From a virus (Duplodnaviria > Caudoviricetes): a stretch of 64,000 nt of DNA. This document shows, one piece after another, positions 395-35,333 of this stretch. A program made the translations under genes and the position numbers. The DNA lies in IMG/VR virus record IMGVR_UViG_3300014969_000019, positions 3,145 to 67,144 of that record, one strand, 5' to 3'. The notes under the pieces were generated by a model. The model had not been told where the DNA came from. It saw only the letters and a list, made by a program, of their open reading frames with translations, and ran no database searches. Each line of letters starts with the position of its first letter. Within the stretch, counting starts at the first letter, position 1.

Positions 395-670
395 ATGGAG
401 AGTGCGTTCGGGGTCGACCACGGCGAGGTGAGCAAGAGCATCGGCTTGCCCAAGGGTCTGCGGGCAGCCAAGGGTCGAGGCGGCCTCTCGACCAACTACG
501 CCGGTAACCGCAAGATGGCTCACTTCACGGGGCGGTTGATCGCCCGGAACAAGGCGAAGGGTGGGGGCGTCTACCCACATGCGGGGCAGAGGTACCGCGA
601 GAAGAGCCGAGAGCTCGTGGACCAGGCCACCAAGAGCGGTCCGAGAAGGAAGCGGGTACAGCTGCCGTGA
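395..670 (+). CDS. Small basic protein with SAFGVDHGEVSK N-terminal tag (tag family member 1)
   Basis: Begins MESAFGVDHGEVSKS; RBS gagg upstream; stop overlaps next start (GTGA). Confidence 0.8.
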   Translation: MESAFGVDHGEVSKSIGLPKGLRAAKGRGGLSTNYAGNRKMAHFTGRLIARNKAKGGGVYPHAGQRYREKSRELVDQATKSGPRRKRVQLP

Positions 671-1062
671 GCGCTGCGAACGTGCCGATCGAGATCGACC
701 AGGGTGAGGACTGGACTGGCACGGTCATCTACACCGATGACTTCGACCAGCCCTACAACGTCATCCCTCCCTGTCGGATGGACATCAAGAACTCTGGTGG
801 TGCGACCCAGCTCTCCCTGATCACCCCGGACGAAGAGGTGCCCGAGGGCACGATCCCCGACATCGGCCTGAGCTCGGAGATCGGGCTCCTGCAGCTGCAC
901 ATCGAGGACTCGGTGACCGCAGCTCTGCGGCCCGGGGTCTACAAGTACGACCTGTTCGTCACCGTGAACGACGGCAACGAGTACGCCGGCAACCAGGTCC
1001 AGCGACTGATCTACGGCTCGGTCACCGTCAACCAGCGGGTCACTCAGCTAGGGAGCGAGTAA
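667..1062 (+). CDS. Virion structural/minor tail protein
   Basis: IEIDQGEDW ... YKYDLFV ... RLIYGSVTV beta-sandwich pattern seen in phage tail-associated proteins; coupled to neighbours. Confidence 0.6.
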   Translation: MSAANVPIEIDQGEDWTGTVIYTDDFDQPYNVIPPCRMDIKNSGGATQLSLITPDEEVPEGTIPDIGLSSEIGLLQLHIEDSVTAALRPGVYKYDLFVTVNDGNEYAGNQVQRLIYGSVTVNQRVTQLGSE

Positions 1063-1739
1063 TGAGCAACGTCGTACGCCTGGTCTCAGGCGGAGCCGTC
1101 CAGGTCCGCACGGGCGTGATCCAGGGGATCGGGCCTCAGGGGCCGCGCGGGGTGGCTGGTCCCCAGGGCCCCGATGGCGACCAGGGCCCGATCGGTGACA
1201 CCGGCCCGCAGGGACAGATCCTGCAGCTCCAGGGGCTGAGCTCGGTGGGCACATCCAACCCGCTGTCCTCGGGCGCGGACACGGTGATCGCGTTCGGCTC
1301 GGTGCCCTACGACGACCTGAGCTGCTTCACCTCGACCTCCAACATCACGCTCTCTGCTGCCGGCGACTACCTGCTCAGCGCCTGGCTGAGGTTCGACGCG
1401 GCCACGGCCACCAAGCGCGAGGTGTGGTTCCAGACCGGTTCGACCACGATCGCCCGGAAGTCGGTGATGGCTGACACCGGAGTGTTCTACGTGGACCTGG
1501 CGATGCCGTACCGAGCTGCTGGTGGCGAGGTGGTCAACGTGCACGCGCTCGCGGGCGTGGCCACTGCTGTCGGACAGGGATCGGTCTCAGTGACTCGGGT
1601 AGGGTCTGGGCCTCCGGGGCCGGTTGGTCCGTCTGGCGTCCAGGGCCCAATCGGGGCGACGGGTGCAACCGGCCCCGCCGGACCTGCGGGTTCGTCGAGC
1701 TCCGGCTACGCCTCGTACGCGCTGCTGCTTCCCCACTAG
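1062..1739 (+). CDS. Collagen-repeat tail fibre-like protein
   Basis: Gly-X-Y runs at both ends (GPQGPRGVAGPQGPDGDQGP; GPPGPVGPSGVQGP) around a beta-rich domain. Confidence 0.75.
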   Translation: MSNVVRLVSGGAVQVRTGVIQGIGPQGPRGVAGPQGPDGDQGPIGDTGPQGQILQLQGLSSVGTSNPLSSGADTVIAFGSVPYDDLSCFTSTSNITLSAAGDYLLSAWLRFDAATATKREVWFQTGSTTIARKSVMADTGVFYVDLAMPYRAAGGEVVNVHALAGVATAVGQGSVSVTRVGSGPPGPVGPSGVQGPIGATGATGPAGPAGSSSSGYASYALLLPH

Positions 1740-1748
1740 TCTCAGCGC

Positions 1749-4748: not shown

Positions 4749-4757
4749 GAGAGCACC

Positions 4758-6733: not shown

Positions 6734-6775
6734 CGCGTGGCCGTTGATGAGACCATCTGAGTAGAGGAGGCAGAC

Positions 6776-7102
6776 ATGCCAGGAACGACTCCCGCCCAAG
6801 CCTTTCGGGTTCCGGTCGGCACCGATGACCCGGACGTAGTTGACGACATCACCCAGCTCGCCAAGCAGATCGAGAAGCGGGTGATGGGGGTCTACGCCAC
6901 CACGGCCGCGCGCGACGCTGCGACCACGGCAGCAGGTGTTCAGGAGGGGATGTTCGCCTTCACTCAGGACACCGACTCGGTCTGGTACTACTCGGGCTCG
7001 GCCTGGGTGAAGTTCCCACCCGCTCAGCCGGCGATCACCTCGGGGACCTCGGTGCCCTCGAACAGCTCCGGTGCTGACGGCGACGTCTTCTTCAAGGTCT
7101 AG
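6776..7102 (+). CDS. Minor tail protein
   Basis: YATTAARDAA...EGMFAF...YYSGSAW pattern typical of actinophage minor tail proteins; strong RBS gaggagg. Confidence 0.65.
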   Translation: MPGTTPAQAFRVPVGTDDPDVVDDITQLAKQIEKRVMGVYATTAARDAATTAAGVQEGMFAFTQDTDSVWYYSGSAWVKFPPAQPAITSGTSVPSNSSGADGDVFFKV

Positions 7103-7104
7103 CA

Positions 7105-8214: not shown

Positions 8215-8243
8215 TGACTAGCCCAACGAGTGAGGATGAAGAC

Positions 8244-9218: not shown

Positions 9219-9228
9219 GGTATGAGCC

Positions 9229-11298: not shown

Positions 11299-13161
11299 AT
11301 GGCTGACGTGAGGCTCCCGCAGGGGGACATCTCCACCTGGGACGAGGACAACGCGGGCGACGAGGTCCCCCAGCGCGTCGGCCCGATGGAGGAACTCGGT
11401 GTCTCCGGCCTGAAGCGGATGTCGGGCTACGTCGACGAGGAGTTCCTCCCCGCGCTGCGTGGTCGCAAGGCGGTCCGGGTCTACCGGGAGATGTCGTCGA
11501 ACGACTCCATGGTCGGCGCGCTGCTGTTCAGCATCGACAAGCTGATCCGCGAGGTGGAGTGGAAGGTGCTCCCGCCGGAGGGCGGCAAGGAGGGCGAGCA
11601 GGCCCAGGAGTTCCTCGAACAGTGCATGGAGGACATGTCCCACAGCTGGGACGACCTGATCGGCGAGATCCTCTCGATGATGACCTACGGCTGGTCCTGG
11701 CACGAGATCGTCTACAAGAAGCGGATCGGGCCCTGGGAGAGGGACCCGAAGAAGCGCTCGAAGTTCACCGACGGCAAGATCGGCTGGCGGAAGATGCCGA
11801 TCCGCGCGCAGGAGACCCTGCTGCGCTGGTCCTTCGACGAGACCGGTGGGATCCGGGCGATGGTGCAGATGGCCCCGCCGAGGTACCAGACCACGGTACT
11901 GCCGATCGAGAAGAGCATCCTGTTCCGCACCTCGATCGCCAAGGGCAACCCGGAGGGCCTCTCCCTGCTCCGGTCCTCCTACCGCTCCTGGTACTTCAAG
12001 AAGCGCCTGGAGGAGTTCGAGGCGATCGGCGTCGAGCGCGACCTGGCCGGCATGCCGGTGGGACGAGTGCCTGCCGACTACCTGACCGCGGCCAAGGGCA
12101 CCCCTCAGGCCAAGACCGTGGACGCCTTCAAGAAGATGGTGCGCGGGGTCAGGCGGGACGAGAACGAGGGCCTGGTGCTGCCCACCCAGTACGACCCGGA
12201 CACCAAGCAGCCGCTGTTCGACTTCGAGCTGATGAGTTCCGGGGGCACCCGCCAGTTCGACACGAACAGCATCATCAACCGCTACGAGCAGCGGATCCTG
12301 ATGGCCGTGCTGGCTGACTTCATCCTGGTCGGGCACGAGGACACCGGCTCCTACTCCCTGCATACCGACAAGACCGGCATCTTCCGGGCAGCCCTGAACG
12401 CGATCACCAAGACGATCGCGGACACCTTGAACCGGTACGCCGTGCCCCGGCTGTTCGCGGTGAACGGCTGGAAGCTCGACGAGCTCCCCCGGTTCGAGCC
12501 CACCAACGTGGACCCGCCGGCGCTGGACCAGCTGGCCGCCTTCATCAGCAGCACGGCGGGTGCCGGCATGCAGTGGTTCCCGGACCCGGAGCTGGAGAAG
12601 TACATCCGCGAGATCGCGCGCCTGCCGGAGATGACGGATGAGGATGTCGACTACAAGCGGATCATGCTGGAGCAGCAGCAGGCCATGGAGTACGGCTCGA
12701 ACCAGATGGAGCTGATGGGGCTGCAGCAGAAGGCCGAGATGACGGCTCAGGGGATGACCCCGGAGCAGGCCCAGATCCACTCCGAGACCCCGCACCCGGA
12801 GACGGCGATGGCCCAGACGGAGCAGGCCCAGATGCAGGCTCAGGCCACCAACATGCCGCCGCCCGAGGACCCGAACGCAGGACCGCAGCACGCGCGCGAG
12901 AAGGAGAAGCTGCTGCTGGCCGACAAGACCGCTGCCAGCGCGCACTCGCGCGAGAAGGAGAAGATGAGGCTGGCCGACACGATGGCCAACCGGGACCACA
13001 AGCGGACCAAGGAGCAGATCCGGGTGAAGGACAGCTCGGCTGCGAAGAACGCCAAGCTGAAGATCCAGCAGCAGAAGGCCGCTGGACCGGCCAAGGCGCT
13101 GGCTGCGAAGAAGACCGCGAAGACGGCCAAGAAGCCGCCGCCGAAGAAGAAGGGGCGTTGA
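11299..13161 (+). CDS. Portal protein with Gln/Lys-rich C-terminal extension
   Basis: Follows terL; 620 aa; GNPEGLSLLRSSYRSWYFKK and GIERDLAGMP-like motifs of Mu gp29/DUF935-type portals. Confidence 0.88.
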   Translation: MADVRLPQGDISTWDEDNAGDEVPQRVGPMEELGVSGLKRMSGYVDEEFLPALRGRKAVRVYREMSSNDSMVGALLFSIDKLIREVEWKVLPPEGGKEGEQAQEFLEQCMEDMSHSWDDLIGEILSMMTYGWSWHEIVYKKRIGPWERDPKKRSKFTDGKIGWRKMPIRAQETLLRWSFDETGGIRAMVQMAPPRYQTTVLPIEKSILFRTSIAKGNPEGLSLLRSSYRSWYFKKRLEEFEAIGVERDLAGMPVGRVPADYLTAAKGTPQAKTVDAFKKMVRGVRRDENEGLVLPTQYDPDTKQPLFDFELMSSGGTRQFDTNSIINRYEQRILMAVLADFILVGHEDTGSYSLHTDKTGIFRAALNAITKTIADTLNRYAVPRLFAVNGWKLDELPRFEPTNVDPPALDQLAAFISSTAGAGMQWFPDPELEKYIREIARLPEMTDEDVDYKRIMLEQQQAMEYGSNQMELMGLQQKAEMTAQGMTPEQAQIHSETPHPETAMAQTEQAQMQAQATNMPPPEDPNAGPQHAREKEKLLLADKTAASAHSREKEKMRLADTMANRDHKRTKEQIRVKDSSAAKNAKLKIQQQKAAGPAKALAAKKTAKTAKKPPPKKKGR

Positions 13162-18790: not shown

Positions 18791-19816
18791 ATGAGCGACA
18801 TCCACAAGCTGCTGGCCACGGACGACACGTTCCGTGAGGTCGCCGACCTGCTCTTCGGTGGTGGCGGAGACGAGCTCATCGCCAAGATGTCCCCGACCCA
18901 GTCCGACCTGTCCACCCACGATCGGAAGAAGCGCAAGGTCACCGCCGGTCTGAGTGCGGTGGGCGCGGCTGCTGGCGCAGCCGGACTGGGTCTGGGCGCG
19001 CACAACCTGGGACGGTCTTTCAAGGCCGCTCGGGGTGCGCAGAAGCTGGCGGGTGAGTTCCGTGCTCCGGGTGCTCGGAGGGCGGCGGCCAAGACCGCGG
19101 TGGGCAAGGAGAAGCTGGCGACTGGGCTGGTCCCGCTGGAGGTGGCCGGCCTCGGTGGTGAGCTGATGGCCACCAAGATCCTGCACGGGGACACCAAGAA
19201 GAAGGGCTCCCTGGTCAAGAAAGACCTCGGCGACATGCTGAACAACGCCAAGGAGCCGCCGACCAAGGGCAGCGTCACTCGGGCGGTGATCTCCAGCCCG
19301 AAGGCCCGGAAGAAGGGGATGCTGTACACCAAGAAGGGCGCGGGGGCGCTGAAGAAGCTCCCGAACAAGATCAAGACCACCAACGAGGTCGAGAAGTCCT
19401 ACGACGAGGTCGACGTGATCTGGGAGGGCGAGTTCGCCAAGGCCGACGCCGACAAGCAGCAGGTCTTCGGCTGGGCCAGCGTGGTGGAGGTCAACGGCGA
19501 GCCGGTGGTGGACCTGCAGGGTGACTACATCTCCTCCGACGAGATGGAGAAGGCCGGCTACGAGTACGTGATGAAGTCGCGCAGAGGCGGGGACATGCAC
19601 CTGCGTGACGACTGGAGCCCGGTCCAGAAGAGCGACATGATCGAGAGCTTCATCGTCACCGAGGAGAAGCGCGACGCGATGGGCCTCCCGGACTCGGTCC
19701 CCACGGGCTGGTGGGTCGGGTTCCAGGTCCAGGACCCCGAAGTCTGGTCCAAGGTGAAGTCCGGTGAGCGGACCGGGTTCTCCATCCACGGGCACGGGAA
19801 GCGGAGCCCGGCATGA
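18791..19816 (+). CDS. Prohead (capsid maturation) serine protease, XkdF-like, with basic N-terminal pro-region
   Basis: C-terminal ~130 aa: KQQVFGWASV...VDLQGD.I...EMEKA...GGDMH (His)...WWVGF...VWSKVKSGERTGFSIHG (Ser). Confidence 0.85.
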   Translation: MSDIHKLLATDDTFREVADLLFGGGGDELIAKMSPTQSDLSTHDRKKRKVTAGLSAVGAAAGAAGLGLGAHNLGRSFKAARGAQKLAGEFRAPGARRAAAKTAVGKEKLATGLVPLEVAGLGGELMATKILHGDTKKKGSLVKKDLGDMLNNAKEPPTKGSVTRAVISSPKARKKGMLYTKKGAGALKKLPNKIKTTNEVEKSYDEVDVIWEGEFAKADADKQQVFGWASVVEVNGEPVVDLQGDYISSDEMEKAGYEYVMKSRRGGDMHLRDDWSPVQKSDMIESFIVTEEKRDAMGLPDSVPTGWWVGFQVQDPEVWSKVKSGERTGFSIHGHGKRSPA

Positions 19817-20031
19817 GCACCTCCGCCTTCGGAGTCGACCACGGCGAGATCTCCAAGGCGAGCCGCGCGCAGGTAGTCAACGTTGGCGAACTGTTGGGGA
19901 AGCCTAGTAGGGCTGAGCGTCTTCGGCTGCTGGGGCCGCAGAAGACCAAGAACAAGCGCAGAACTGCCATGGGTCTCGCTGCTGGCGCTGGCGGTGTGGG
20001 CGGTTACGCCGCAGGAAAGAGTAAGCGATGA
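19813..20031 (+). CDS. Small basic SAFG-tag protein (member 2)
   Basis: MSTSAFGVDHGEISKA...GLAAGAGGVGGYAAGKSKR; ATGA overlap with the protease stop. Confidence 0.8.
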   Translation: MSTSAFGVDHGEISKASRAQVVNVGELLGKPSRAERLRLLGPQKTKNKRRTAMGLAAGAGGVGGYAAGKSKR

Positions 20032-21386
20032 GCCTGAGTGCCTTCGGGATCGACCATGGCGACATCTACAAGGCCGAGGACCCGAACCGGAAGAAGAAGC
20101 AGGCCGCTGCCGCTGCTGGTGGCACTGCTGCGGTCGGCGGAGTCGGGTTGGCCGCGACCAAGATCCCTGAGCACTCTCACTACGACAAGAAGACTCGGAA
20201 GTACCTGCACTCGCTCCCCGCGGGCGAGCACGAGGTGCCTACCGCGATGCTGGGGAAGCGTCCTCGGAAGCTCGGGGCCAGGAAGCAGCAGGCCCCGTAC
20301 GTGGCCGCGATGGCGCAGGAGCGTCCGCTGGAGTCCTTCCACGCCTCGCCGGTTCCGATCACCAGGTACAAGGGCAAGGGCCACCCCACCATCCAGCGGG
20401 ACAACGCGCACACGGTGATGGCCAACGCGATGAAGGGCCGTACGACCAGGATCAAGATCGAGGACGCTCCCGGCTACCGCCCGAACCGGCGCACTGCTGA
20501 CGAGCTGGTCCGTCGTGGCCAGTCGAAGTACCAACAGCGCCGGCTGAGACTGCACACCAACCTCTCGGAGAAGGCGATCGAGGGGATCCGCGGGAAGTAC
20601 ACCGACAAGTCCCGAGCTGCGAACACGGCCAAGCGTCCGCACGGGGTGGTCGAGGAGTCCCTGAAGTACAACCCGAAGAAGTACGGGGTGGGCAGGGCAG
20701 TGGGCCGGGCCAAGAACCTCGCAGCAGTGGTGAAGAGGGATCGCCGGGGGCGAGACACGGCCGCCGGCGTCACCGGGGCGGCTGGGGTAGGCACGCTGGC
20801 ATCTACGCCGGTGCGTCGCTCAGCGGCCAAGGTGGACGTCTCCGGCGGCTCGATGTCGGCCTCTGACGCCAAGAAGGTTGTCTCCCCCGGCTACCGCCCT
20901 GGGAACAAGCGCGCGATCCGGACGATGGCTGCCAACCTCGGTCACCTGGAGAACAAGCCCACCACGGTGGTCAGGTACAAGAGCGGGCATGTGGTCCCCT
21001 TCGACGGGAACCACCGAGCCTCGGCGCGAGTCGCGCGCGGGGACGCGCGAGTCCCAGTGAACGTGATCGAGGGTGGTGAGCGTCCGGCGATCAGTGCTGC
21101 TCGGAACGCCTTCCACGTCGGTCAGCAGAAGGTGCATCGGAACCGGATGGACCGGGACGTGTTCAAGCCCAACGCCAGGATCGGACGGCACGCGGGTGAG
21201 ACCAAGGCCTACCGCTCCATCGCCAACGCCTCCCCACTCAGGTCCGGGAAGCGGGTCGCGGTCGGGTCCACCAAGATCGGATCGGGTCCGACCAAGGCCG
21301 TACTGAGGACCAAGCAGGGTGCGACCCTGGCTGCGGGAGCCGCTCTGCTCGGGACCTCTGCTCACCTCCACCGGAAGAAGAGCTGA
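20028..21386 (+). CDS. SAFG-tag protein (member 3) with ParB/Srx-like unit(s)
   Basis: MSLSAFGIDHGDIYKA; PFDGNHR motif at ~21003; very basic. Confidence 0.8.
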   Translation: MSLSAFGIDHGDIYKAEDPNRKKKQAAAAAGGTAAVGGVGLAATKIPEHSHYDKKTRKYLHSLPAGEHEVPTAMLGKRPRKLGARKQQAPYVAAMAQERPLESFHASPVPITRYKGKGHPTIQRDNAHTVMANAMKGRTTRIKIEDAPGYRPNRRTADELVRRGQSKYQQRRLRLHTNLSEKAIEGIRGKYTDKSRAANTAKRPHGVVEESLKYNPKKYGVGRAVGRAKNLAAVVKRDRRGRDTAAGVTGAAGVGTLASTPVRRSAAKVDVSGGSMSASDAKKVVSPGYRPGNKRAIRTMAANLGHLENKPTTVVRYKSGHVVPFDGNHRASARVARGDARVPVNVIEGGERPAISAARNAFHVGQQKVHRNRMDRDVFKPNARIGRHAGETKAYRSIANASPLRSGKRVAVGSTKIGSGPTKAVLRTKQGATLAAGAALLGTSAHLHRKKS

Positions 21387-22240
21387 TGAAGCCACTCATG
21401 AGCGATGCGGAGATGCGTCGCCGGCAGAAGCTCCAGGGCAAGATCGGGCGGACCACCTCCACCCTGGGTCTGTCCGGCGTGGCGCTGACCGGTGCAGCGA
21501 TCGCGACCAAGAAGAAGCCCGGCTCGCTGAAGGCGATCACCAAGGTGCCGGGTCTGAGCAGAGTGAGTCACGGCGGGCTGAAGAACGCGGCCTTCCACAC
21601 CTCGATCGCTGCCGGTGGTATCGGCGGTGTCGGCGGGTTCAACCAGGCGAGCATCTACTCGGCTGAGTCCAGGAAGCGCAAGGCGGCGGCTGTGGTGAAG
21701 AAGGGGTTCGGCATGGAGATGGGCTACTACGGCGAAGAGGGGAAGCCGCTGACGCACGAGGAGATCGAGGCCGAGATCGAGAAGGCCTGGACGCCCTCTG
21801 CTTCCAACTTCGACTCCGAGCGCAGCCGGCACAAGCGCACCAAGGGCTACGAGGGCGGTGCTCTGGTCGGGGCCGGAGCTGGTGCTGCGTACGCCACTCG
21901 GCACGGAGTGAAGGCCGGCAAGGCCGCCAGCAAGATCAAGTCCAAGGAGATGACGCCAGTCCTGCACCGAGTGAACTCCGCAGGCCAGCCCTACCGGATA
22001 GGGCTCGGGTCTCAGGGGGAGAAGGCCATCTCGACCGGTTCCCTGAAGAAGCTGGGAGGCCACAGCGGGAAGGCTGCGGTGGGTCTGGCCGCAGTGGGTG
22101 GCGCTGCTGCCACACACTCCGCGATCAAGCGGAAGAAGCAGAGTGGATGGCAGTCCTACGCCAAGCGCGATGCCACATCAGCGTTCGGGGTCGATCACAG
22201 CGACAACCCGAATGGACAGCACCGTGAGACTGAGAACTAG
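21386..22240 (+). CDS. Basic Gly/Ala-rich protein with C-terminal SAFGVDH remnant
   Basis: TGATG coupling; several hydrophobic Gly/Ala segments; ends KRDATSAFGVDHSDNPNGQHRETEN. Confidence 0.75.
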   Translation: MKPLMSDAEMRRRQKLQGKIGRTTSTLGLSGVALTGAAIATKKKPGSLKAITKVPGLSRVSHGGLKNAAFHTSIAAGGIGGVGGFNQASIYSAESRKRKAAAVVKKGFGMEMGYYGEEGKPLTHEEIEAEIEKAWTPSASNFDSERSRHKRTKGYEGGALVGAGAGAAYATRHGVKAGKAASKIKSKEMTPVLHRVNSAGQPYRIGLGSQGEKAISTGSLKKLGGHSGKAAVGLAAVGGAAATHSAIKRKKQSGWQSYAKRDATSAFGVDHSDNPNGQHRETEN

Positions 22241-22251: not shown

Positions 22252-23079
22252 ATGCCACGACCGAAGAACCACCTGACCGACATGGAGATCGACGAGATCT
22301 CCACCGTCGACAAGGCCGCGAACCAGCACTCACGGTTCGTCATCGCGAAGCGGGCTCCCGAGGAGGAAGAGATGCCCAAGCTCTACAACCAGGAGGGCCA
22401 GCCCCTCGACGAGGACCAGCTGGAGTTCGGCGACATCGTGTACGACGACGCAGGCGCTGCCTACGAGTACGTCGAGAACGAGGTCGAGGACGAGCCGGCG
22501 AAGAAGAAGGAAGACGAGGACGAGCCAGTGCCCGAGCTCGCAGGTGTGGGCAAGAGCGCCTTCTTCGAGAAGTCGGCTCCGAAGACCGGCAGCTTCAGCG
22601 CATCGGTGATGGAGGAGCTCTCCAAGGCGTTCTCCGACAACGACCGTGACGCGGTCATCGCCAAGGCGCTCGGCCGGGTCGAGGAGCTGGAGAAGGCACA
22701 GGAGGAGTCGGCCAAGATCGCCAAGTCCGAGCGCGACCTGCGCCTGACTCGTGAGTACATCTCCAAGGCCGCGGAGTACAACCTCCCGATCCCTGCTGAC
22801 GAGCTCGGTCCGGTGCTCTACCGGATGGCCGAGTCCATGAGCTTCGACGACTGCAAGGTGATCGCCAAGGCGCTGGAGACGGCCGGCGACATCATCTTCG
22901 AGGAGACGGGCTACACGGGTGGCGGCGACAACTCCGACGTGTACTCCCAGGTCGAGGCTCACGCCTACGACCAGTTCGGGAAGTCGGAGGGCTTCGACTC
23001 CGTCTCAGCCATCAATACGGTGTTCGACCAGAATCCGGACGCCTACGACGAGTACCTGCGCTCGCAGCAGGCCCGGTAG
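22252..23079 (+). CDS. Scaffolding protein
   Basis: Acidic, helical, between protease cluster and decoration/MCP; N-terminal LTDMEIDEISTVDKAAN. Confidence 0.8.
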   Translation: MPRPKNHLTDMEIDEISTVDKAANQHSRFVIAKRAPEEEEMPKLYNQEGQPLDEDQLEFGDIVYDDAGAAYEYVENEVEDEPAKKKEDEDEPVPELAGVGKSAFFEKSAPKTGSFSASVMEELSKAFSDNDRDAVIAKALGRVEELEKAQEESAKIAKSERDLRLTREYISKAAEYNLPIPADELGPVLYRMAESMSFDDCKVIAKALETAGDIIFEETGYTGGGDNSDVYSQVEAHAYDQFGKSEGFDSVSAINTVFDQNPDAYDEYLRSQQAR

Positions 23080-23509: not shown

Positions 23510-24508
23510 ATGCCGAACCCCACTCAGAGCGATCTCCACGTCAACGTTCCGCTGACCAACGTCTCTGTGGCCTACATGCAGGACAAGGCCCAGTTCATCG
23601 CCGACAAGGTGTTCCCTCGGGTCCCCGTGCAGAAGCAGAGCGATCTGTACTGGAAGTACTCCAAGTCCGACTGGCGCAGGACGGACGCGCAGAAGCGTGC
23701 GCCCGGCACCGAGACGGCCGGAGTCGGCTGGAAGGTCGACACGGGGCAGTACTTCGCCGAGGTCTGGGGTGTCCACAAGGACATCGACGACCAGGTCCGG
23801 GCGAACGCTGACTCGAACTGGAGGCTCGACTCTGACGCCACCACCTTCGTCACGAACCAGCTCCTGCTGCGCCGTGACCTGGACTGGAACGACAAGTTCT
23901 TCAAGACGGGCCAGTGGGGTACGGACCTCGCCGGCGTGACGGGCACCGTGGGTGCCGGCCAGTTCCTGCAGTGGAGCGACCCGGCCTCGGACCCGATCGT
24001 GCAGTTCGCCGACCTGCAGACTAACTTCGTGGAGCAGTCAGGCCGCAAGGCCAACACGCTGGTCCTCGGTGCTCGGGCGATCACCCAGCTGAAGAACCAC
24101 CCGGACATCATCGACCGGATCAAGTACACCCAGCGTGGTGTCGTGACCACCGACCTGCTCGCGTCGCTGTTCGACGTGGAGCGGATCCTGGTCAGCTACG
24201 CGACGGTGACCGACGTGGCCGAGCTGAACGACGCGAAGGCCCAGGACGCTGCGGCGACCTACCGGTTCATGTCCAACTCCAAGTCGGCGCTGCTGGTCTA
24301 CACCCCCAGCTCGCCGTCGCTGATGACCCCGGCCGGCGGCTACACCTTCACCTGGAACGGGTACCTGGCTGGCAACAGCTACGGGATCCGGATGAAGAAC
24401 TTCCGGATGGAGCCGATCGCTGCGGACCGCATCGAGGGCGAGATGACCTACGACATGCGTGTCGTGGCCAAGGACATGGGCATCTTCCTGTCCGCCGCGG
24501 TGGCGTAA
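23510..24508 (+). CDS. Major capsid protein (HK97 fold)
   Basis: 332 aa; LHVNVPLTNVSVAY...IADKVFPRVPVQKQSD.Y pattern; strong RBS gaggag; followed by a hairpin. Confidence 0.92.
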   Translation: MPNPTQSDLHVNVPLTNVSVAYMQDKAQFIADKVFPRVPVQKQSDLYWKYSKSDWRRTDAQKRAPGTETAGVGWKVDTGQYFAEVWGVHKDIDDQVRANADSNWRLDSDATTFVTNQLLLRRDLDWNDKFFKTGQWGTDLAGVTGTVGAGQFLQWSDPASDPIVQFADLQTNFVEQSGRKANTLVLGARAITQLKNHPDIIDRIKYTQRGVVTTDLLASLFDVERILVSYATVTDVAELNDAKAQDAAATYRFMSNSKSALLVYTPSSPSLMTPAGGYTFTWNGYLAGNSYGIRMKNFRMEPIAADRIEGEMTYDMRVVAKDMGIFLSAAVA

Positions 24509-24569: not shown

Positions 24570-24791
24570 ATGATGGAGAGTGCGTTCGGGGTAGACCACG
24601 GAGAAATCTCGAAGAAGGGACCGCTCTCGGCTTCGATGACCATCAGGGGTGCCAAGCTGAGCCCTGTGGTCGGACGCGGACTGCCCGGGAAGCGCGCCAA
24701 GGCCATGTCTCCGCTCACCGCTGGTAGTGCTGCAGCCGGGAAGCACCGGCTCGGTGGCGGTACCCACTCATCCGGACTGTTCGCGAGGTAG
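24570..24791 (+). CDS. Small basic SAFG-tag protein (member 5)
   Basis: MMESAFGVDHGEISKK; RBS gaggag 5 nt upstream; in frame with track ORF 24459..24791. Confidence 0.8.
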   Translation: MMESAFGVDHGEISKKGPLSASMTIRGAKLSPVVGRGLPGKRAKAMSPLTAGSAAAGKHRLGGGTHSSGLFAR

Positions 24792-24799: not shown

Positions 24800-25336
24800 A
24801 TGCCACAGCTGCTGAAGAACGAGGGGATCTCCTTCGTCGCGGCGAAGAACTTCACCTACGCCGGCGAGGACTTCGTGATGGGCCAGGAGTTCCCGGAGGA
24901 GAAGGCCCGCAACGTCGAGACGCTCATCCGCGCACGGTTCCTGCTCCCGGTGCTCGAAGAGGGCCACCTGCGGCCCCGGCACTGGCACACCCACATCCGT
25001 ACTCGGGAAGAGGCCGAGGAGTACCTGAACCGGGAGCGAGTGCAGCTGAGGATGCCGCACGAGCCGGACTCAGACGAGGTCGTGGACATCCCGGTCCTGA
25101 CCCACCCCGAGGACACCCCAGAGCCGGAGGGCGAGGGTGAGGACGCTCTGGCTCCCACTCAGGAGTCCGAGTCGGCTCCTGAGCCCCCGGAGAGCCTGGA
25201 GGAGACCTACGACCCGGCCGAGCACAACGTGGAGGCGGTCCTGGAGTACATCGCCGAGCATCCCGAGCAGAGGGATGAGGTCCTGGCGATGGAGCGGGCG
25301 AACCGTGGTCGCAAGGGGATCGTGGGGGAGGACTGA
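24800..25336 (+). CDS. Head-tail region protein with acidic linker and C-terminal HeH-like helical motif
   Basis: YDPAEHNVEAVLEYI...RDEVLAMERANRGRKGI; position after MCP. Confidence 0.6.
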   Translation: MPQLLKNEGISFVAAKNFTYAGEDFVMGQEFPEEKARNVETLIRARFLLPVLEEGHLRPRHWHTHIRTREEAEEYLNRERVQLRMPHEPDSDEVVDIPVLTHPEDTPEPEGEGEDALAPTQESESAPEPPESLEETYDPAEHNVEAVLEYIAEHPEQRDEVLAMERANRGRKGIVGED

Positions 25337-25674
25337 TGGAGTCAGCATTCGGCATCGACCACGGCGAAGAGGTCTCCAAGCTGGGCATCGGCGGGTTGGG
25401 GACCAAGATCGGCCAGAAGACCATGAAGATCGGCCAGGGACTGCGCCAGTCTGGGGCCAACAACATGGCCATGGGTCGCAAGGCCGGTGGCGGGTTCGGT
25501 GCCGGCATGCAGGTCGGTGGCGCGAAGCGAGTCCAGGCTGGAGGCCAGTTGCGCAAGCTCGGTCAGGGCATGCAGAAGCGTCCCGGTCTGACCGGCGGTC
25601 TCGCAGTCGGTGGTGGCGCAGCTGGCGTCGGTGCTGCAGGAGGCATGTTCGCGAACCGGCAGCGGCGGTTCTGA
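25336..25674 (+). CDS. SAFG-tag glycine-rich basic protein (member 6)
   Basis: MESAFGIDHGEEVSKL; TGATG coupling on both sides. Confidence 0.8.
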   Translation: MESAFGIDHGEEVSKLGIGGLGTKIGQKTMKIGQGLRQSGANNMAMGRKAGGGFGAGMQVGGAKRVQAGGQLRKLGQGMQKRPGLTGGLAVGGGAAGVGAAGGMFANRQRRF

Positions 25675-25979
25675 TGCAGAGCGCGTTCGGGATCGACCAC
25701 GGCGACGAGATCACCAAGATCCGTCTGCCCAGGCGGCCAGTGAAGACGCCGCCCCCGCGCGCGCCCTCGCGAGCCAGCCAGATCGGCGGGAAACTGAACC
25801 GACTCGGCGAGAAGGACATCTCGATCAAGGAGCTGGGCGGAAGCGCAGGGCGAGGCGTCGGCAACGTCGGCAGCTTCATGCAGCGGCACCCGGGTCTCAC
25901 CGGTACTGCACTGGTGGGAGGAGGCGGCGCGGGAGGCTACAAGGTCATCACTGACAGGCAGAGGAAGAAGGCCCGCTGA
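25674..25979 (+). CDS. SAFG-tag glycine-rich basic protein (member 7)
   Basis: MQSAFGIDHGDEITKI; C-terminus MQRHPGLTGTALVGGG is paralogous to member 6 (MQKRPGLTGGLAVGGG). Confidence 0.8.
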   Translation: MQSAFGIDHGDEITKIRLPRRPVKTPPPRAPSRASQIGGKLNRLGEKDISIKELGGSAGRGVGNVGSFMQRHPGLTGTALVGGGGAGGYKVITDRQRKKAR

Positions 25980-26488
25980 TGACCTACACCTACCTCGGCG
26001 CTGGTACCACCGACAAGGACACCGTCCGGTTCCTGCTCCAGGACACTGACCCGTTCAACGCGAACGAGTGGCAGGTCTCCGATGAGGACATCCAGTGGGC
26101 CTACGACACCTGGTACCCGCTCTACCACTCCCTGCAATATGTCGCGGCGAGCATCGCTGATACCATCGCGGCGCGTTACGCACGCGAGGCGTCCTACAGC
26201 GCCGACGGGGTGTCCGTCAGTCTCGGGCCGGTGGGGGACCAGTACCGAGCGCTGGCGGTGAATCTGCGCCAGCAGTACCAGGCGCAGCTCGTTGGGACGG
26301 TCCCATCTGCGGGTGGGATCGAGCCCAACGAGCCCCTGGAGCCCAACACCAAGGCGTTCGCCTTCGGCAAGGGCATGCACGACAACATGGAGGCCGGCGC
26401 TCAGGACTACGGCGGGGTCTACCCGCCGGACATCCCGCTCACCGGGAACCAGAACGTGCCCGACTACGAGAAGGTCGTCGAGCCGTGA
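25979..26488 (+). CDS. Head-to-tail adaptor
   Basis: DKDTVRFLLQDTD...VSDEDIQW...AASIADTIAARYAR...DGVSVS pattern. Confidence 0.75.
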   Translation: MTYTYLGAGTTDKDTVRFLLQDTDPFNANEWQVSDEDIQWAYDTWYPLYHSLQYVAASIADTIAARYAREASYSADGVSVSLGPVGDQYRALAVNLRQQYQAQLVGTVPSAGGIEPNEPLEPNTKAFAFGKGMHDNMEAGAQDYGGVYPPDIPLTGNQNVPDYEKVVEP

Positions 26489-26772
26489 GGTCCGCCTTCG
26501 GGGTGGAGCACTTCGCCAAGAGCTACACCAAGATGGCCCCGAAGCTGGCTGGGGCCCTGAAGTCGGTCGACCCGGCCAAGGCCACCACGATGGCCGGCAA
26601 GCTCCGTCACCACGCCGGGACCCTGCGCCTGGAGGCCGGTCACGTCGGTCGGACCCAGGGCTCGATGTCGCGCGGGTTCCCTCGGTCGATGGCGCAGCAG
26701 GACCGGAGTGAGTCTCGGCTGCTCACCACCGGAGCGATCAACGCCAACAAGCCGAAGCGGTTCCTGCCATGA
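26485..26772 (+). CDS. SAFG-tag variant protein (member 8)
   Basis: MRSAFGVEHFAKSY; GTGA overlap with the adaptor stop. Confidence 0.75.
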   Translation: MRSAFGVEHFAKSYTKMAPKLAGALKSVDPAKATTMAGKLRHHAGTLRLEAGHVGRTQGSMSRGFPRSMAQQDRSESRLLTTGAINANKPKRFLP

Positions 26773-29652: not shown

Positions 29653-32600
29653 GTGACGGCTCAGCCGGTTGAAGCCAACGTCGTCCTGACGAGCGATAAC
29701 TCTCAGTACGACCGGGCGATGGTCACCTCGGCTGGGAACACCGACAGTCTGGGCGCGTCGGTCGACAACCTCGGCCGCAAGATCAACACCCTCTCCAAGA
29801 CCGCCGGCAAGACGCTGATCGGGATCAGCGCAGCCGACGTGGCGACGATCACCGGGGCCACCGCGGCCTGGTCCAGCTACGAGAAGCAGGTGAACCGGCT
29901 GCAGTCGCAGTCGGCGGTCTTGACCCGGACCAACGCCCAGCAGACCGTGGTGATGAAGGACTACACCAACGCGGTCAAGACCCTGCGAACCGAGTACGGG
30001 ACCACCACGTCCGAGGCCTCGAAGCTGGTCGAGGTGCTCTCCAAGGTCACCAGCGTCCGACAGAGCCGGGACCTGCAGGACCTGAGCAAGGTCTTCGTGG
30101 ACATGTCCCACGCCACTGGTGAGAGCTCGGAGGGCCTGGCCAACTCGCTGACCAACCTGCAGCGGGTGATGGGCGCACCGATCAACTCCAAGAACACCCG
30201 TACCTACGCCGACCAGTTCACCTACCTGGCTGCCCAGACGAACACCTCGGCCTCGGGTCTGGCCGACTTCACCTCTCAGCTGGCTCCCACCGCCAAGGCG
30301 ATGGGGATGCACCGCAACGAGATTGTTGGGTTCGCCGCCGCCTTCGCCAAGATCGGGCAGGACGGTGGGCCTGCGGCCAACGTCTTCACCAAGATCACCA
30401 CCGACATCTCCCACTCACTGGCGTCCGGGTCTCCGGAGATCGCTCACTACGCCAACCTGTTGGGGGTCACCCAGCGGCAGTTCAAGGCGATGGGTGCCGG
30501 CGAGCAGGTCGTCGAGATCTTCGAGAAGCTGCAGTCAGAGGGCAAGGGCGCGGCCACCGAGCTGAACCGGCTGGGTCTGGACGGGCCCCGCTCGATCCGG
30601 GCGATCCAGGCGATGATCGCCTCCGGTGGGCTGCGCGAGTCGATGGGGCTGGCCCGGGAGGGGGCGAGGTCTGACGCGGCAGCGGAGGGAGCCGGCGCTG
30701 CCCATGGCATGTCCGAGGAAGTCGACCAACTGCAGCAGAACTTCCAGCAGCTGACCGAGACCATGGGCGGCTACTTCGGTCCCACCCTGGAGAAGTTCGT
30801 CGAGGGCATGAACAAGGCCCTGGAGGTCACCAACAAGATCGCCGAGGGACCGCTCGGCCAGTTCGTGGCCCTGATCATGACCGTGGTGGCTCCGCTGGCC
30901 ACCGGAGCCGGGATGCTGCTGCTCTTCGCCGGCGCGCTGATGAAGGTGGCCGCCGCCTTCACCCTCTTCCGCTCCAGTGCGGCCTACGGCGTTCGCGAGG
31001 GCTTCAGTGGAGGTGGAGCGCTGGGCTCGGGAGCAGCAGGCACGCGCGGGCGGCAGCTGGAAGGTGCCGGTACCTGGTTCCAGCGTGCGCAGTACGGCGG
31101 CGGCCAGATGGCAGGGAGTCTGGCCAGCAGCGCGCTGGGTGTTACTCGGACGGGATGGCAGAAGGGCCGAGCCTGGGCTGACCCGAACTACACCCCGGGT
31201 CCTCCGCGCAGCATGTTGTCCTACATGGCTGGCGGTCTCGGACGCGGGATGGACATGTTCCTGACCCCCGGGTTCGACCAGATGCGGTACGCCGACCCGA
31301 CCATGCGGGAGCGGAGTCGGTTCTTCCAGCGGTCTCCGATGGGGATGTCCGCTGCCGTCGCTGAGGCTGGTGCCACTGCCGACGCTGCTCGCGAGCGGGC
31401 TCGGACAGCGGGTGCGGTCTACCAGTCGGTCTCGACTGCGCAGGGGTCCACCGACCAACAGATCGACCAGGCCAAGCGGGACATGCACCGGGCCAACCAG
31501 GAGGCGCTGTCCTCTACCCGAGCCTCGGTAACTGCTCAGAAGGAGCAGGTCGAGACGATCAAGAACCTGAACCGGGAGACGGGGAACACCACCACCGGGT
31601 TCCGTCGCCTGGCCGGCGCGACTGGTGGGTTCGCGGCTGGTGCCGGTGGTGCGGTGCTGGGTGGAGCAAGGGCTGCTGGTGGAGCCTTCCTGAGGTCCGG
31701 TGCAGCGCTGCCGGTCGGCGGGATGGCGGGCATGGCTGCGTCCAGCGCGTTCATGCCCGGGTCGAACACCGCGATGCTCGCCTCCATGGGTCTGATGATG
31801 GGCCCAGAAGGAGCCGCTGTCGGGGCTGGTGTCGGGGCCATCCTGGACACGGTCCAGGCCAACAACAAGATGTCGGACTCGGTCAAGGAGCTGACGGCCA
31901 ATGCCGACGAGGCGGTCAAGTCCGGGGGTGGACTGACCGAGCTGAACGACTCGCTGAGCACCACCAACAAGACGATCAGCGACACCGCCAAGAGCTTCGA
32001 CCAGAGCTCGATGTCCTACTGGTTCGGGAAGCCCGGGAGCCTCAGCACGCTGCTGGGAGGCACCAAGAACACGATCGAGGGGGTCTTCGGCAAGTCCGAC
32101 GTCGAGGAGGCTGCGGACGCCACGGCGAAGGAGCGCGCACGGATCCAGCAGATGGAGAGCGCTGCTCGTGACGTCGCCAAGGAGACCGGGACCAAGATCA
32201 CCGGTACCAGGCGCAACCAGCTGGCTCAGCTCGATGCCCTGATGCAGGGGACTGGTGCCCAGCGCCTGTCCACGGCCGGGATCGACCCCGAGGACCTGGT
32301 CGCGGCCCGGTCCGCGATGATCCGCGGAGACGAGGGTGCCGCCGAGAGATACGAGGGGATGCTGACCAAGATCGGCGCTCCCTCGGCAGCAGCCGGGCGT
32401 CGGTCGGCTACCACCGCTGCCGGTGCGGCGATGCAGGGATCCGACGTGGCTCAGATGTCGATCAAGCATCAGGAGAGCGTCAGGCTCTTCTACACCGCCA
32501 CCTCCGACATCTTCGACAAGCTCCACAAGCAGGGCATGACTGATCTGGACATCTTGGAGTCCACCGAGAAGGCCCAGGCCAGGATCGGGGATCAGAACGA

Positions 32601-35040
32601 CCGCCAGTACGAGCTGCAGATGGCGGTCTCGGCGAAGGCCCAGCAGAACCTGCAGATGCAGATGCCGTTCATGGGTCGGGGTGAGCAGTTCCAGGCCTCG
32701 ATCGGTCAGATGAACGCGCTGAGCTCGATCGTCCCGCGCACCGAGGAGCAGGCCGCACAGCTGGACCAGCAGAAGCAGGCCACCGCCCAGGCGTTCGTGG
32801 ACCAGGCGTCCTACTTCAAGCAGATGCTGCTGATGCAGGACCAGTACGAGATCCAGCGCCGGCGTGCTCAGCAGGACTACAGCCTCCAGCGGTCCTACCA
32901 GGAGCATGACTTTCAGCTCCAGCGCTCCCGCGCCGAGTACCAGTTCCACCTCTCCCAGGACCGAGCCACCGCCGACTACTACCGCGGCGTACGGCGAGCG
33001 CACTACGACTTCAACCTGCAGCGGAAGCGGGCAGAGGACGACTACGACCACTCGGTCCAGGTGCAGGCCAAGCAGATGGCGATGTCGGTCTACGACATCT
33101 ACCAGCGGGTGCAGGTACAGCGGACCAGCTCGGCCTCCCAGATTCTGAGCAACGCCGCCGACCAGCTGCAGCGGATGCGGACCCAGGAGCGGGACCTGGA
33201 CAAGCTCCGGGGCATGGGCGCGTCCGACGCCATGATCCAGCAGATGAAGTTCACGGACCCGGCCAACCAGCAGCAGCTGGCCAGGTTCATGACCGAGGCC
33301 ACTCCGCGGGTCATCCGCCAGTTCAACCAGGTAGCCGGGTCCCTGCGCGAGGGCGCTGCTCGGGAGCTGATGAACGACCCTTCCTCGCTGGATGCCGACG
33401 AGCGTCGTCGCCAGCACCGGATCCAGCTCCAGCGCTCACGGGACGACTTCGAGCGTCAGCTCCGGCTCGGTCACGACGACTTCCAGAGGGCCTTGCAGCG
33501 CCAGCGCAAGGACTTCAACCTGATGATGGACCAGCAGGCCACCGACTTCGACACCCAGATGGGTCGCCAGGCCGATGCCTACCAGCTGTCGATGAAGCGG
33601 AGCGCCGAGGACCTGGCCAACGTCGGCAAGGAGATCGACGGGAACTTCGAGTCGATCCTGGTCCAGGCCACGAAGCGGCTGTCTGGGCACGCGCAGAAGC
33701 AGGCCAAGGACGTGCTGGAGTCCTTCCGGACCCTGAAGGGCTCCACCAGTGCCGAGGCCATCGCCACCATGCAGGACCTGGCGGAGATCTTCGGGTTCAA
33801 GTACAAGATCCCGAAGGGGGTCTCCAACAACACCCCGCCGACTCACGACACTGGGTCCGACCCACGCGGTACGGGCACCAAGACCGGGCTGGCCAGCGGT
33901 GGTGTGGTGCCGGGCTGGTCCCCGGGCAGGGACACCACCATGGTGCCGCTCTCGGGTGGCGAGGCGATCATGCGCCCGGAGTGGGCTCGGGCGATGGGTG
34001 AGGGCTACATCAACGCGATGAACCACAAGGCCAAGCACGGTGGGTTCGCCGACGGCGGGATGGTGAACCCGGATGCTCGGGTCTACATGGACGGCGAGCC
34101 GATGTCCAAGATCGCTCGGGCCCAGGTGCTGCTGGCCGAGCACCTCTCGCACCTGAACTTCTCGATCATGCAGGGTTCCTGGCAGCCCTACACCTCCTAC
34201 TCCGGCTCCTCGCACATGGGGCCGGGCGTGGCCGACGTCGCGCCGGGCAACTTCAGGACCCAGTACTGGCTGCGTCGGGCCGGCTTCGCCGCCTGGGGCC
34301 GCAACTTCCCTGGCGCAGCCACTGCTGGTTCTGGAGCACACGTCCACGCGGTCTCGCTGCTGGACCCCGGTGCTGCAGACCAGGGCCAGATCGATGCCTA
34401 CTACGCCGGCCAGGACGGCCTGGGTGGGAAGGACTACGGGCCCGACCCCGGGATGGTCCCCGGTATTCGCGGGATGCTGAGCCAGTTCGCGGCGCTGGCC
34501 TCGATCCAGTCCATGGGCGGGTCCGGGCGCGCTGCTGTCCCCCGGCTGGCCTCGATCCTGAAGCACCGCTACCCGCACTCCGAGGCGGCTGCGGCGGCGA
34601 TGACCGGGGTGCACCCGCTGTTCCCCGGCGACATCTCTCATGTGATGAACCAGCTGATCCGGAAGCGGTACGCGGAGTCCCTGGAGGGGGTCAACCCGAA
34701 CCAGCACCAGAGCTGGTACGGCGCTGGTGGGGTGTTCACCGGCCCGAAGGGGATCGGGGTGGCCGAGGCTGGCCCGGAGGCGGTGATCCCGCTGAACGAC
34801 CAGGGAGCCGCCTTCCTGGCCACCGCCATCCATGGTGCGGAGGCGCGCGGGATCGGGATGGGCTCGTCGCCGATGCGGGGCGGGCTGAGTGTCTACAACA
34901 CCCGGATCGACAAGTCCACGAACTTCAGTGGTCCGATCACGGTCCAGGCGAACGACCCAGGCGAGCTGATCGCCAAGCTGCAGGCTCGCCAGCGGGTGAT
35001 GGCCCTGTCTCGACCGAGCCTGACAGGATCAGCGGCATGA
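29653..35040 (+). CDS. Tape measure protein with embedded metallopeptidase-like domain
   Basis: 1795 aa, Ala/Gly-rich, TP901-like region, GGVVPG/SGGEAIMR/EAGPEAVIPL motifs; follows the chaperones. Confidence 0.95.
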   Translation: MTAQPVEANVVLTSDNSQYDRAMVTSAGNTDSLGASVDNLGRKINTLSKTAGKTLIGISAADVATITGATAAWSSYEKQVNRLQSQSAVLTRTNAQQTVVMKDYTNAVKTLRTEYGTTTSEASKLVEVLSKVTSVRQSRDLQDLSKVFVDMSHATGESSEGLANSLTNLQRVMGAPINSKNTRTYADQFTYLAAQTNTSASGLADFTSQLAPTAKAMGMHRNEIVGFAAAFAKIGQDGGPAANVFTKITTDISHSLASGSPEIAHYANLLGVTQRQFKAMGAGEQVVEIFEKLQSEGKGAATELNRLGLDGPRSIRAIQAMIASGGLRESMGLAREGARSDAAAEGAGAAHGMSEEVDQLQQNFQQLTETMGGYFGPTLEKFVEGMNKALEVTNKIAEGPLGQFVALIMTVVAPLATGAGMLLLFAGALMKVAAAFTLFRSSAAYGVREGFSGGGALGSGAAGTRGRQLEGAGTWFQRAQYGGGQMAGSLASSALGVTRTGWQKGRAWADPNYTPGPPRSMLSYMAGGLGRGMDMFLTPGFDQMRYADPTMRERSRFFQRSPMGMSAAVAEAGATADAARERARTAGAVYQSVSTAQGSTDQQIDQAKRDMHRANQEALSSTRASVTAQKEQVETIKNLNRETGNTTTGFRRLAGATGGFAAGAGGAVLGGARAAGGAFLRSGAALPVGGMAGMAASSAFMPGSNTAMLASMGLMMGPEGAAVGAGVGAILDTVQANNKMSDSVKELTANADEAVKSGGGLTELNDSLSTTNKTISDTAKSFDQSSMSYWFGKPGSLSTLLGGTKNTIEGVFGKSDVEEAADATAKERARIQQMESAARDVAKETGTKITGTRRNQLAQLDALMQGTGAQRLSTAGIDPEDLVAARSAMIRGDEGAAERYEGMLTKIGAPSAAAGRRSATTAAGAAMQGSDVAQMSIKHQESVRLFYTATSDIFDKLHKQGMTDLDILESTEKAQARIGDQNDRQYELQMAVSAKAQQNLQMQMPFMGRGEQFQASIGQMNALSSIVPRTEEQAAQLDQQKQATAQAFVDQASYFKQMLLMQDQYEIQRRRAQQDYSLQRSYQEHDFQLQRSRAEYQFHLSQDRATADYYRGVRRAHYDFNLQRKRAEDDYDHSVQVQAKQMAMSVYDIYQRVQVQRTSSASQILSNAADQLQRMRTQERDLDKLRGMGASDAMIQQMKFTDPANQQQLARFMTEATPRVIRQFNQVAGSLREGAARELMNDPSSLDADERRRQHRIQLQRSRDDFERQLRLGHDDFQRALQRQRKDFNLMMDQQATDFDTQMGRQADAYQLSMKRSAEDLANVGKEIDGNFESILVQATKRLSGHAQKQAKDVLESFRTLKGSTSAEAIATMQDLAEIFGFKYKIPKGVSNNTPPTHDTGSDPRGTGTKTGLASGGVVPGWSPGRDTTMVPLSGGEAIMRPEWARAMGEGYINAMNHKAKHGGFADGGMVNPDARVYMDGEPMSKIARAQVLLAEHLSHLNFSIMQGSWQPYTSYSGSSHMGPGVADVAPGNFRTQYWLRRAGFAAWGRNFPGAATAGSGAHVHAVSLLDPGAADQGQIDAYYAGQDGLGGKDYGPDPGMVPGIRGMLSQFAALASIQSMGGSGRAAVPRLASILKHRYPHSEAAAAAMTGVHPLFPGDISHVMNQLIRKRYAESLEGVNPNQHQSWYGAGGVFTGPKGIGVAEAGPEAVIPLNDQGAAFLATAIHGAEARGIGMGSSPMRGGLSVYNTRIDKSTNFSGPITVQANDPGELIAKLQARQRVMALSRPSLTGSAA

Positions 35041-35333
35041 GGTCGGTCTGGGGCATCGAGCACGGAGAGGTCTCCAAGGCGTACCGGAAACTGGCCCCCA
35101 AGCTGTACCGGGCGTTGGACAAGATGCCTGAGTACGAGAAGCAGAACATGGATCAGCGGTTGCGCTACAACACGCTCCACATCCGTGGAGTGGCTGGTAA
35201 CTACGGTCGAGCGAACCGAACGAAGAAGTCAGCTGAGTACGCGGAGTTCAACCAAGGCTGGAAGAAGATGGCCGCTGCTTCCGCTCGTGGGGTTGAGGCC
35301 ATCTCCCGGCGGAAGGGACGGAAGTTGCCATGA
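35037..35333 (+). CDS. SAFG-tag variant protein (member 9)
   Basis: MRSVWGIEHGEVSKAY; ATGA overlap with the tape measure stop. Confidence 0.75.
   Translation: MRSVWGIEHGEVSKAYRKLAPKLYRALDKMPEYEKQNMDQRLRYNTLHIRGVAGNYGRANRTKKSAEYAEFNQGWKKMAAASARGVEAISRRKGRKLP

Follow-up and report, generated by a model that had tools for sequence, protein, structure and literature searches.

Targeted protein loading into phage heads is, to our knowledge, well characterized mainly in T4 and its giant relatives. The capsid-targeting sequence (CTS) of T4 ends in the cleavage motif of the protease gp21, which cuts after LxE, and is removed. This CTS, an N-terminal peptide of about 10 amino acids (aa), puts IPII, IPIII, and foreign proteins such as green fluorescent protein in the prohead scaffolding core, later digested by gp21 (PMC9958956). 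Here, we describe a peptide that invites comparison with it: the SAFG[VI][DE]H tag, carried nine times in a stretch of 64,000 nucleotides (nt) from a tailed virus (Duplodnaviria; Caudoviricetes). This stretch, called the window below, covers positions 3,145 to 67,144 of the IMG/VR virus record IMGVR_UViG_3300014969_000019 and makes up most of that record (completeness estimate 83%). Like the T4 CTS, the tag is a short peptide common to small, basic, non-essential-looking proteins encoded among head genes, with eight N-terminal copies in the window. Unlike the T4 CTS, it is known from sequence alone, its own sequence is unrelated, and it also occurs at C-termini and polyprotein junctions. The setting differs as well, since the virus is a siphovirus of about 80 kilobases (kb) rather than a T4-like myovirus, its protease is of the S78_2/XkdF type with an apparent Lys at P1 rather than gp21 with its LxE site, and its 4-9 tagged genes per genome are scattered between core genes. 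The original prediction for this DNA was a T4-like CTS, of which the shared N-terminal peptide and its lysine-motif end stand, while a relation to the T4 CTS in sequence or protease family does not. By analogy, the tag may work as the T4 CTS does but outside that system, with another sequence, another protease family, and independence of position.

Three other systems offer partial likenesses. We know of no family of separately encoded tagged cargo in HK97. Its protease belongs to a related family (PF14550 being akin to S78), and the cut predicted here falls after Lys and before Ser or Ala; the prototype S78 protease of HK97 cuts at K103/S104 (PMC10275583). The HK97 substrate is the capsid protein's own scaffold domain (gp5 K103/S104), unlike the present virus, whose major capsid protein (MCP) has no hydrophobic-x-K/[SA] site (the slash marks a putative cut, here and below). 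The cargo-loading peptides of encapsulins are short and disordered, stand at either terminus, and bind the interior of a shell with the HK97 fold; they are not cleaved off, their cargo consists of enzymes, and the nanocompartment has no portal. The tag resembles them in being a short terminal peptide that is predicted to be disordered. It differs in belonging to a complete tailed phage (with terL, portal, protease, scaffold, tail tube, and tape measure) and in having basic, low-complexity payloads. In adenoviruses, the core precursors pVII and pX/mu are highly basic, associate with DNA, and are trimmed within the capsid by the adenovirus protease, which recognizes short consensus sites. This is an analogy only, as virus, protease, and motifs are unrelated to those of the phage tag system.

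The SAFG[VI][DE]H tag is new in that our searches found no family, named protein, paper, or cultured bearer for it. Our favored reading, to which we give an even chance on the evidence of its sequence and surroundings, is that it would target basic internal head proteins and mark them for processing, and would itself be removed. An in-frame search of all six frames of the window with the pattern S[AV][FW]G[VI][DE]H gives nine matches, every one of them on the + strand. The full 67,144-bp record, searched with a profile, yields the same nine and has no further tag in its 3.1 kb outside the window. At the DNA level, the pattern GCNTTYGGNRTNGANCAY matches 8 times against 0.02 expected, a count reached in 0 of 100 shuffles. 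Both protein-level searches agree with the original prediction on the number of copies and their places. The one copy that it took to be internal, at about 22170-22200, is actually the C-terminal tag of an open reading frame (ORF), 20 residues before the stop; the translations thus give eight N-terminal tags and one C-terminal tag. The nine tagged ORFs are as follows.

395..670, + strand: tagged ORF A, 91 aa, MESAFGVDHGEVSK/..., isoelectric point (pI) 11.2, end ..RVQLP-stop; among tail-fiber-like genes
19813..20031, + strand: tagged ORF B, 72 aa, MSTSAFGVDHGEISK/A..., with a Gly/Ala segment and a polybasic end
20028..21386, + strand: tagged ORF C, 452 aa, MSLSAFGIDHGDIYK/A..., net charge +57, with a weak ParB_N-like lead
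21386..22240, + strand: ORF D with its C-terminal tag, 284 aa, ..WQSYAK/RDAT-SAFGVDH-SDNPNGQHRETEN-stop; core at 22178-22198
24570/24573..24791, + strand: tagged ORF E, 73 aa, MESAFGVDHGEISK/K... if the start is 24573
25336..25674, + strand: tagged ORF F, 112 aa, with RPGLTGG, a Gly/Ala segment, and a polybasic end after a hairpin
25674..25979, + strand: tagged ORF G, 101 aa, tandem paralog of F, with homologs in 22 loci
26485..26772, + strand: tagged ORF H, 95 aa, GTG start, (M)RSAFGVEHFAK/S..., end ..KRFLP-stop
35037..35333, + strand: tagged ORF I, 98 aa, variant SVWGIEH, tag MRSVWGIEHGEVSK/A..., end ..RKLP-stop

The start of ORF E is probably 24573, because the tag consensus begins M-x-S. 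ORF B starts in an ATGA overlap with the stop of the protease gene, and ORF I in another with the stop of the tape-measure gene; the overlaps of starts and stops are as the original prediction described them. Among the 142 unique N-terminal tags collected across the clade, on which the tag statistics rest, 58 starts overlap an upstream stop and most others lie at most 12 nt from one, and a Shine-Dalgarno-like sequence precedes 101.

Read from these alignments, the tag is bipartite, made of a SAFGV[D/E]H core, a spacer, and a lysine block. The core S-A-F-G-[VI]-[DE]-H is almost invariant. Its Ser is residue 3 (that is, preceded by Met and one more residue) in 120 of the 142 tags, and the residue just before it is I, E, L, Y, or Q, not K. 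The second block, [IV]-[SEA]-K, follows a spacer of 0-5 residues (mode 2) in all but two tags (140/142), so the expectation that the tag ends in Lys was sound. Lys outnumbers Arg in this block by 138 to 2, though the proteins are Arg-rich, and the residue after the Lys is usually A, G, or S. The synonymous codon variation noticed in the window extends to the whole set: Ser is written as AGY in 84 tags and as TCN in 55, and Gly uses all four of its codons, which places the selection on the peptide.

The tag was first described as N-terminal. This is true of most copies, and the description has to be widened to C-termini and to the joints between polyprotein modules. At the extreme C-terminus, 25 ORFs (24 of them real) carry the core alone, in forms such as ..WxSYAK/RDxx-SAFGVDH(0-13 aa)-stop and ..VKK/xx-SAFGVEH-stop. 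In these tags the core is kept and the second block is missing, and a hydrophobic-x-K stands 0-9 residues upstream in all 24 real cases. Polyproteins with 2-4 tags are found among the matches of the representative search described below; for example, P0004, P0006, P0007, P0019, and P0054 are metagenome polyproteins of 399-692 aa with 3-4 tags each. Their unit is [hydrophobic-x-K]-SAFGV[DE]H-x-[IV]-x-K, after which come a spacer of basic residues, a segment rich in Gly and Ala, and a polybasic stretch that leads to the next tag. Of the 30 internal polyprotein tags, 24 have K at -1, with a hydrophobic residue at -3, and the other six keep the M-x prefix. Since the flanks of N-terminal, C-terminal, and polyprotein tags agree, hydrophobic-x-K always stands between core and payload. 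The same modules are encoded as separate genes or fused, and in one relative (G005, IMGVR_UViG_3300021560_000015) the fusion is to the portal. The 642-aa portal ORF (L193 564-2492) carries a tag and a module at its end, ..KKKVKK-SDTT-SAFGVDHGDISK-82 aa, so that a Lys-rich linker, a complete tag, and a basic module lie in a single ORF. Five consecutive tagged ORFs, one of them two-tagged, follow this portal, and then comes the homolog of the window's 1220-aa protein. In general, the C-termini of portals are taken to point into the head.

The tag marks a single, widespread phage clade. A scan of IMG/VR contigs with the pattern GCNTTYGGNRTNGAYCAYGGNGA matches 69 contigs, of which 62 are syntenic relatives and 7 are chance-like. 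The 62 relatives have 2-7 tags per fetched locus, the gene order of the window, and MCP identities of 50-97%. Five relatives have lengths of 77-83 kb and 4-8 tags each, on one strand and in the structural region; of these five, four are at least 99% complete. A tag profile of 31 columns, built from 108 N-termini and run at E<=1e-3, matches 516 clusters (at 50% identity) among 1.84 billion representatives. The tag starts at residue 1 in about 135 of the best 150 of these matches, and the relatives place it in structural operons; the original prediction had proposed such a search, and it bears out the N-terminal position as the dominant one. Homologs in a collection of 5.8 billion proteins are all unnamed metagenome proteins. 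As a negative control, the same DNA pattern was run against 596 Gb of bacterial and archaeal genomes, where its 120 matches are chance-like. The bacterial matches have a random residue before AFG, lack M-x-S and [IV]SK, and occur as single copies. The tag is thus not a host or prophage motif. A literature search did not find the motif letters in any paper, megablast found no cultured relative of the region, and protein A, compared with cultured phages by tblastn, matched only by chance, on the reverse strand of lysin B genes. On these matches, the tag defines one clade of uncultured tailed soil phages, siphoviruses of about 80 kb that are common in metagenomes.

Judged by their predicted properties, the payloads behind the tag are varied in sequence and uniform in chemistry. 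A pI above 10 is found for 138 of 139 unique payloads (median 11.5). Over about 99 residues they carry a median net charge of +14, and 33% of their residues are Gly or Ala. This is where the idea of a tag for any payload fails, because practically every payload is basic and Gly/Ala-rich. That the bodies beyond the tag diverge completely also needs to be qualified. Much of the divergence is real, as BLAST sorts 170 payloads into 58 clusters (F and G are in the largest, which has 60 members). Nevertheless, F and G are paralogs, A, H, and I share their ends, and all nine tagged proteins of the window have a pI of 10.3-11.8. Many members of the F/G family have RPG[LV]TG near their end, then a hydrophobic segment rich in Gly and Ala, and finally a polybasic tail. 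One homolog matches the Pfam family Gly-zipper_YMGG (PF13441), and a similar segment is found in the pro-region of the protease. The ending [KR]xLP-stop is present in A, H, and I and in 18 of the 139 payloads, and [KR]-x-L-P-stop may be a second terminal signal. H and I also have K[ML]APKL in common just after the tag.

An AlphaFold2 model of F, built from 71 aligned sequences, has residues 1-18 disordered, with a predicted local distance difference test score (pLDDT) of about 51, and a helical hairpin at residues 19-81 (pLDDT 74-89). A Foldseek search with this model gave generic hairpins only and nothing below E = 1. The payload of ORF C contains a DGNHR motif, and in the ESM Atlas it gives weak ParB_N/DUF6551 leads with scores of 0.80-0.84 at a template-modeling (TM) score below 0.3. 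Pfam and PHROG scans pass no family for any of the nine tagged proteins, so a known domain with another function, which could have overturned the prediction, was not found.

The lysine motif reaches beyond the tagged proteins. The protease of the window is a Peptidase_S78_2 (PF14550 at aa 214-338, E = 1e-19), and synteny shows scaffold and MCP encoded beside it. Scaffolds are classic substrates of prohead proteases. The scaffold-like protein of the window contains 10 hydrophobic-x-K/[SA] sites where 0.78 would be expected (about 13-fold; 0 of 5000 composition-preserving shuffles reach 10), and most of these sites are invariant in 26 homologs. It also has a conserved half-tag, VGK/SAFF, at aa 99-105 (nt 22546-22566), which reads KSAFG in two homologs. 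The protease itself has five such sites (P = 0.013). These counts suggest that hydrophobic-x-K is a candidate cut site of the clade's S78-type protease, with the enrichment in the scaffold as indirect and independent support.

Some further features of these two genes are recorded here for themselves. In all protease ORFs with a recovered C-terminus, from 13 of the 14 loci with a protease match (the window and the L003-L070 homologs), the ORF ends 5-10 residues after GFSIHG; that of the window ends 7 aa after it. The S78-typical strand EIS[TL]VD[KR]xAN stands instead at the N-terminus of the scaffold (EISTVDKAAN in the window, 22252-22330), even when the two genes are adjacent, and 0-3 tagged genes lie between them. 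In the Arthrobacter phage Kovu (L192), the scaffold homolog at 17865-18647 has 7 [IVLFMY]-x-K/[SA] sites, Tyr being counted as hydrophobic in that scan. Kovu has no tag, so the lysine motif may predate the tag. The N-terminus of the Kovu scaffold reads ..EETSGVDHPAH. The tag's GVDH resembles this last S78 strand (Kovu ..SGVDHPAH), a likeness too short to count as evidence.

In the favored reading, the disordered core SAFG[VI][DE]H would dock the protein on a common prohead partner, with the S78-type protease or the scaffold core as the likeliest candidate. Hydrophobic-x-Lys would be placed after the core in N-terminal tags, before it in C-terminal tags, and on both sides in polyproteins. The prohead protease would cut there, and the tag would be discarded. 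The basic modules (helical hairpins, a Gly/Ala-rich segment, a polybasic tail, and a few larger bodies) would remain as internal head proteins, delivered from separate genes or from beads-on-a-string polyproteins, and may have a role after ejection. A fuller version, to which we give somewhat less than an even chance, is a position-independent code in which a docking core and hydrophobic-x-K cut sites would bring protamine-like modules, in arrays and polyproteins, into the prohead for release by the S78 protease. The phage would then have a polyprotein system for core proteins, with a packaging tag that is portable and could be engineered. It is improbable that the tag docks as a mimic of the final strand of the protease fold, a strand that the scaffold gene encodes in this clade.

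If the favored reading is true, the tag is an independent, sequence-defined code for packaging and processing, in a siphovirus lineage of ordinary size that is frequent in metagenomes. The code would be unusual in acting from either end of a protein, as a polyprotein junction, and on protamine-like basic proteins. It would also provide a concrete cleavage rule for XkdF/S78_2 proteases and a means to annotate hundreds of unnamed metagenome proteins. One could further consider the tag, short and portable as it is, a candidate for loading cargo into HK97-fold capsids.

The genes around the tagged ORFs fit a siphovirus structural operon, with terL, portal, tail tube, and tape measure all on the + strand. 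Its features are as follows; where one number is given, it is the start.

9775, + strand: terL
11299..13161, + strand: portal (phrog_113), with a basic C-terminal extension
13163, + strand: 1220-aa protein
16825, + strand: MuF-like protein
18791..19816, + strand: prohead protease, Peptidase_S78_2 (XkdF)
19813-22240, + strand: tagged B, C, and D, between protease and scaffold
22252..23079, + strand: acidic scaffold-like protein of 275 aa, pI 4.3, net charge -33
23095, + strand: 133-aa protein
23510..24508, + strand: MCP (phrog_1005, lambda-E-like)
24800, + strand: acidic protein of 178 aa, between tagged E and F
25979, + strand: g25979 (phrog_1732, function unassigned in the family), a connector gene by position
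26769, + strand: DUF6093 protein, after tagged H
27194, + strand: HK97-gp10/Neck1-like protein
28326, + strand: tail tube
29653-35040, + strand: tape measure, followed by tagged I

Most structural neighbors in the window are acidic, whereas the tagged proteins are all basic. When the unique tagged ORFs of the clade are tallied by the core gene preceding them, the counts are:

after g24800: 50 N-tagged, 0 C-tagged
after MCP: 24 N-tagged, 1 C-tagged
after g26769: 17 N-tagged, 0 C-tagged
after protease: 6 N-tagged, 10 C-tagged
after g25979: 11 N-tagged, 0 C-tagged
after portal: 7 N-tagged, 1 C-tagged
after terL: 5 N-tagged, 0 C-tagged
after tape measure: 1 N-tagged, 0 C-tagged

These tallies place most tags in the head and connector intervals, and C-tagged ORFs are almost confined to the interval between protease and scaffold. 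The tag is seen solely on genes of the late structural operon, in keeping with the claim that tagged genes belong to the late virion operon.

Several observations weigh against a removable targeting peptide. The proposed model leaves the fixed M-x spacing before Ser unexplained, and cleavage of a C-terminal tag would free merely a peptide of 7-25 residues. The lysine motif is not enriched in MuF or in the 1220-aa protein, and in the scaffold, which is helical and rich in Ala and Lys, helix periodicity could account for part of its lysine motifs. Payloads so uniformly basic could enter the head by charge alone. A few tagged genes are located in tail or tail-fiber intervals (A at 395 and I after the tape measure). 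Also, no cultured member of the clade was found, and in a profile search the closest cultured phage by MCP (47%), Kovu, has no tag; a k-mer repeat scan of Kovu was swamped by noise from its high guanine and cytosine content.

The entry by charge leads to the alternative that survives best, although we consider it unlikely. Here, the tag would be a processing junction only, an extended protease site between the modules of present or former polyproteins, and the payloads would owe their place in the head to their charge, through the acidic scaffold or DNA, and not to the core. The multi-tag polyproteins speak for this, as they carry tags exactly at the junctions of modules, and so does the K/SAFF of the scaffold; the contrast between payloads that nearly all exceed pI 10 (138/139) and a scaffold of pI 4.3 and net charge -33 would supply the attraction. 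However, the residue before Ser in N-terminal tags is never K, which means that the core is conserved where an upstream cut is impossible. An invariant core of seven residues far exceeds what the hydrophobic-x-K sites of the scaffold need, and the C-terminal tags retain this core when the second block is gone.

A little less probable again is common descent with another partner. The tagged proteins would then be a fast-evolving family of basic Gly-zipper paralogs, whose only constrained end would bind a partner outside the capsid, such as components of the neck, the tail, or the tape-measure lumen, or a chaperone, and which might serve in membrane penetration during infection, bypassing the head. 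The largest cluster does hold 60 of the 170 payloads, F and G are tandem duplicates, one homolog has the Gly-zipper PF13441, and many tagged genes lie between connector genes, with one after the tape measure. Set against this are the 58 clusters into which the same 170 payloads fall, including a 452-aa body with a ParB-like lead, as well as the confinement of C-tagged ORFs to the protease-to-scaffold interval, the fusion to the portal C-terminus, and the scaffold's excess of lysine motifs.

A secretion, membrane, or cell-wall sorting signal is very unlikely; in that case the tag, with the C-terminal hydrophobic segment and basic tail, would direct its bearers to the envelope of the host, where they would act in lysis or superinfection exclusion or be anchored in a sortase-like way. 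The RPG[LV]TG, Gly/Ala hydrophobic segment, and polybasic tail look superficially similar to such signals in the F/G family only. The tag is polar and acidic and is not a signal peptide, there is no LPXTG or LAXTG motif (RPG[LV]TG is not LPXTG), matches in bacterial genomes are chance-like, and the internal copies and the portal fusion are unsuited to export; the sortase version was rejected on these grounds. Least likely of all is a translational or nascent-peptide element tuning the initiation or coupling of small overlapping genes, which the closeness of the starts to upstream stops (58/142 overlapping, most others within 12 nt) would suit and which was rejected for the synonymous codons, AGY and TCN Ser included, and for the copies at C-termini and inside long ORFs.

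The beginning of the window holds a few genes of another kind. The original prediction placed a tagged gene after a small terminase gene, terS, and this is unconfirmed: the ORF at 13-372, upstream of tagged A, has a helix-turn-helix-like look, and its sole match is phrog_645, not a small terminase family. Tail-fiber-like genes lie upstream of terL (window 1-9468) and include a collagen repeat at 1062-1739, a 999-aa protein, and a tail collar at 6080-6733.

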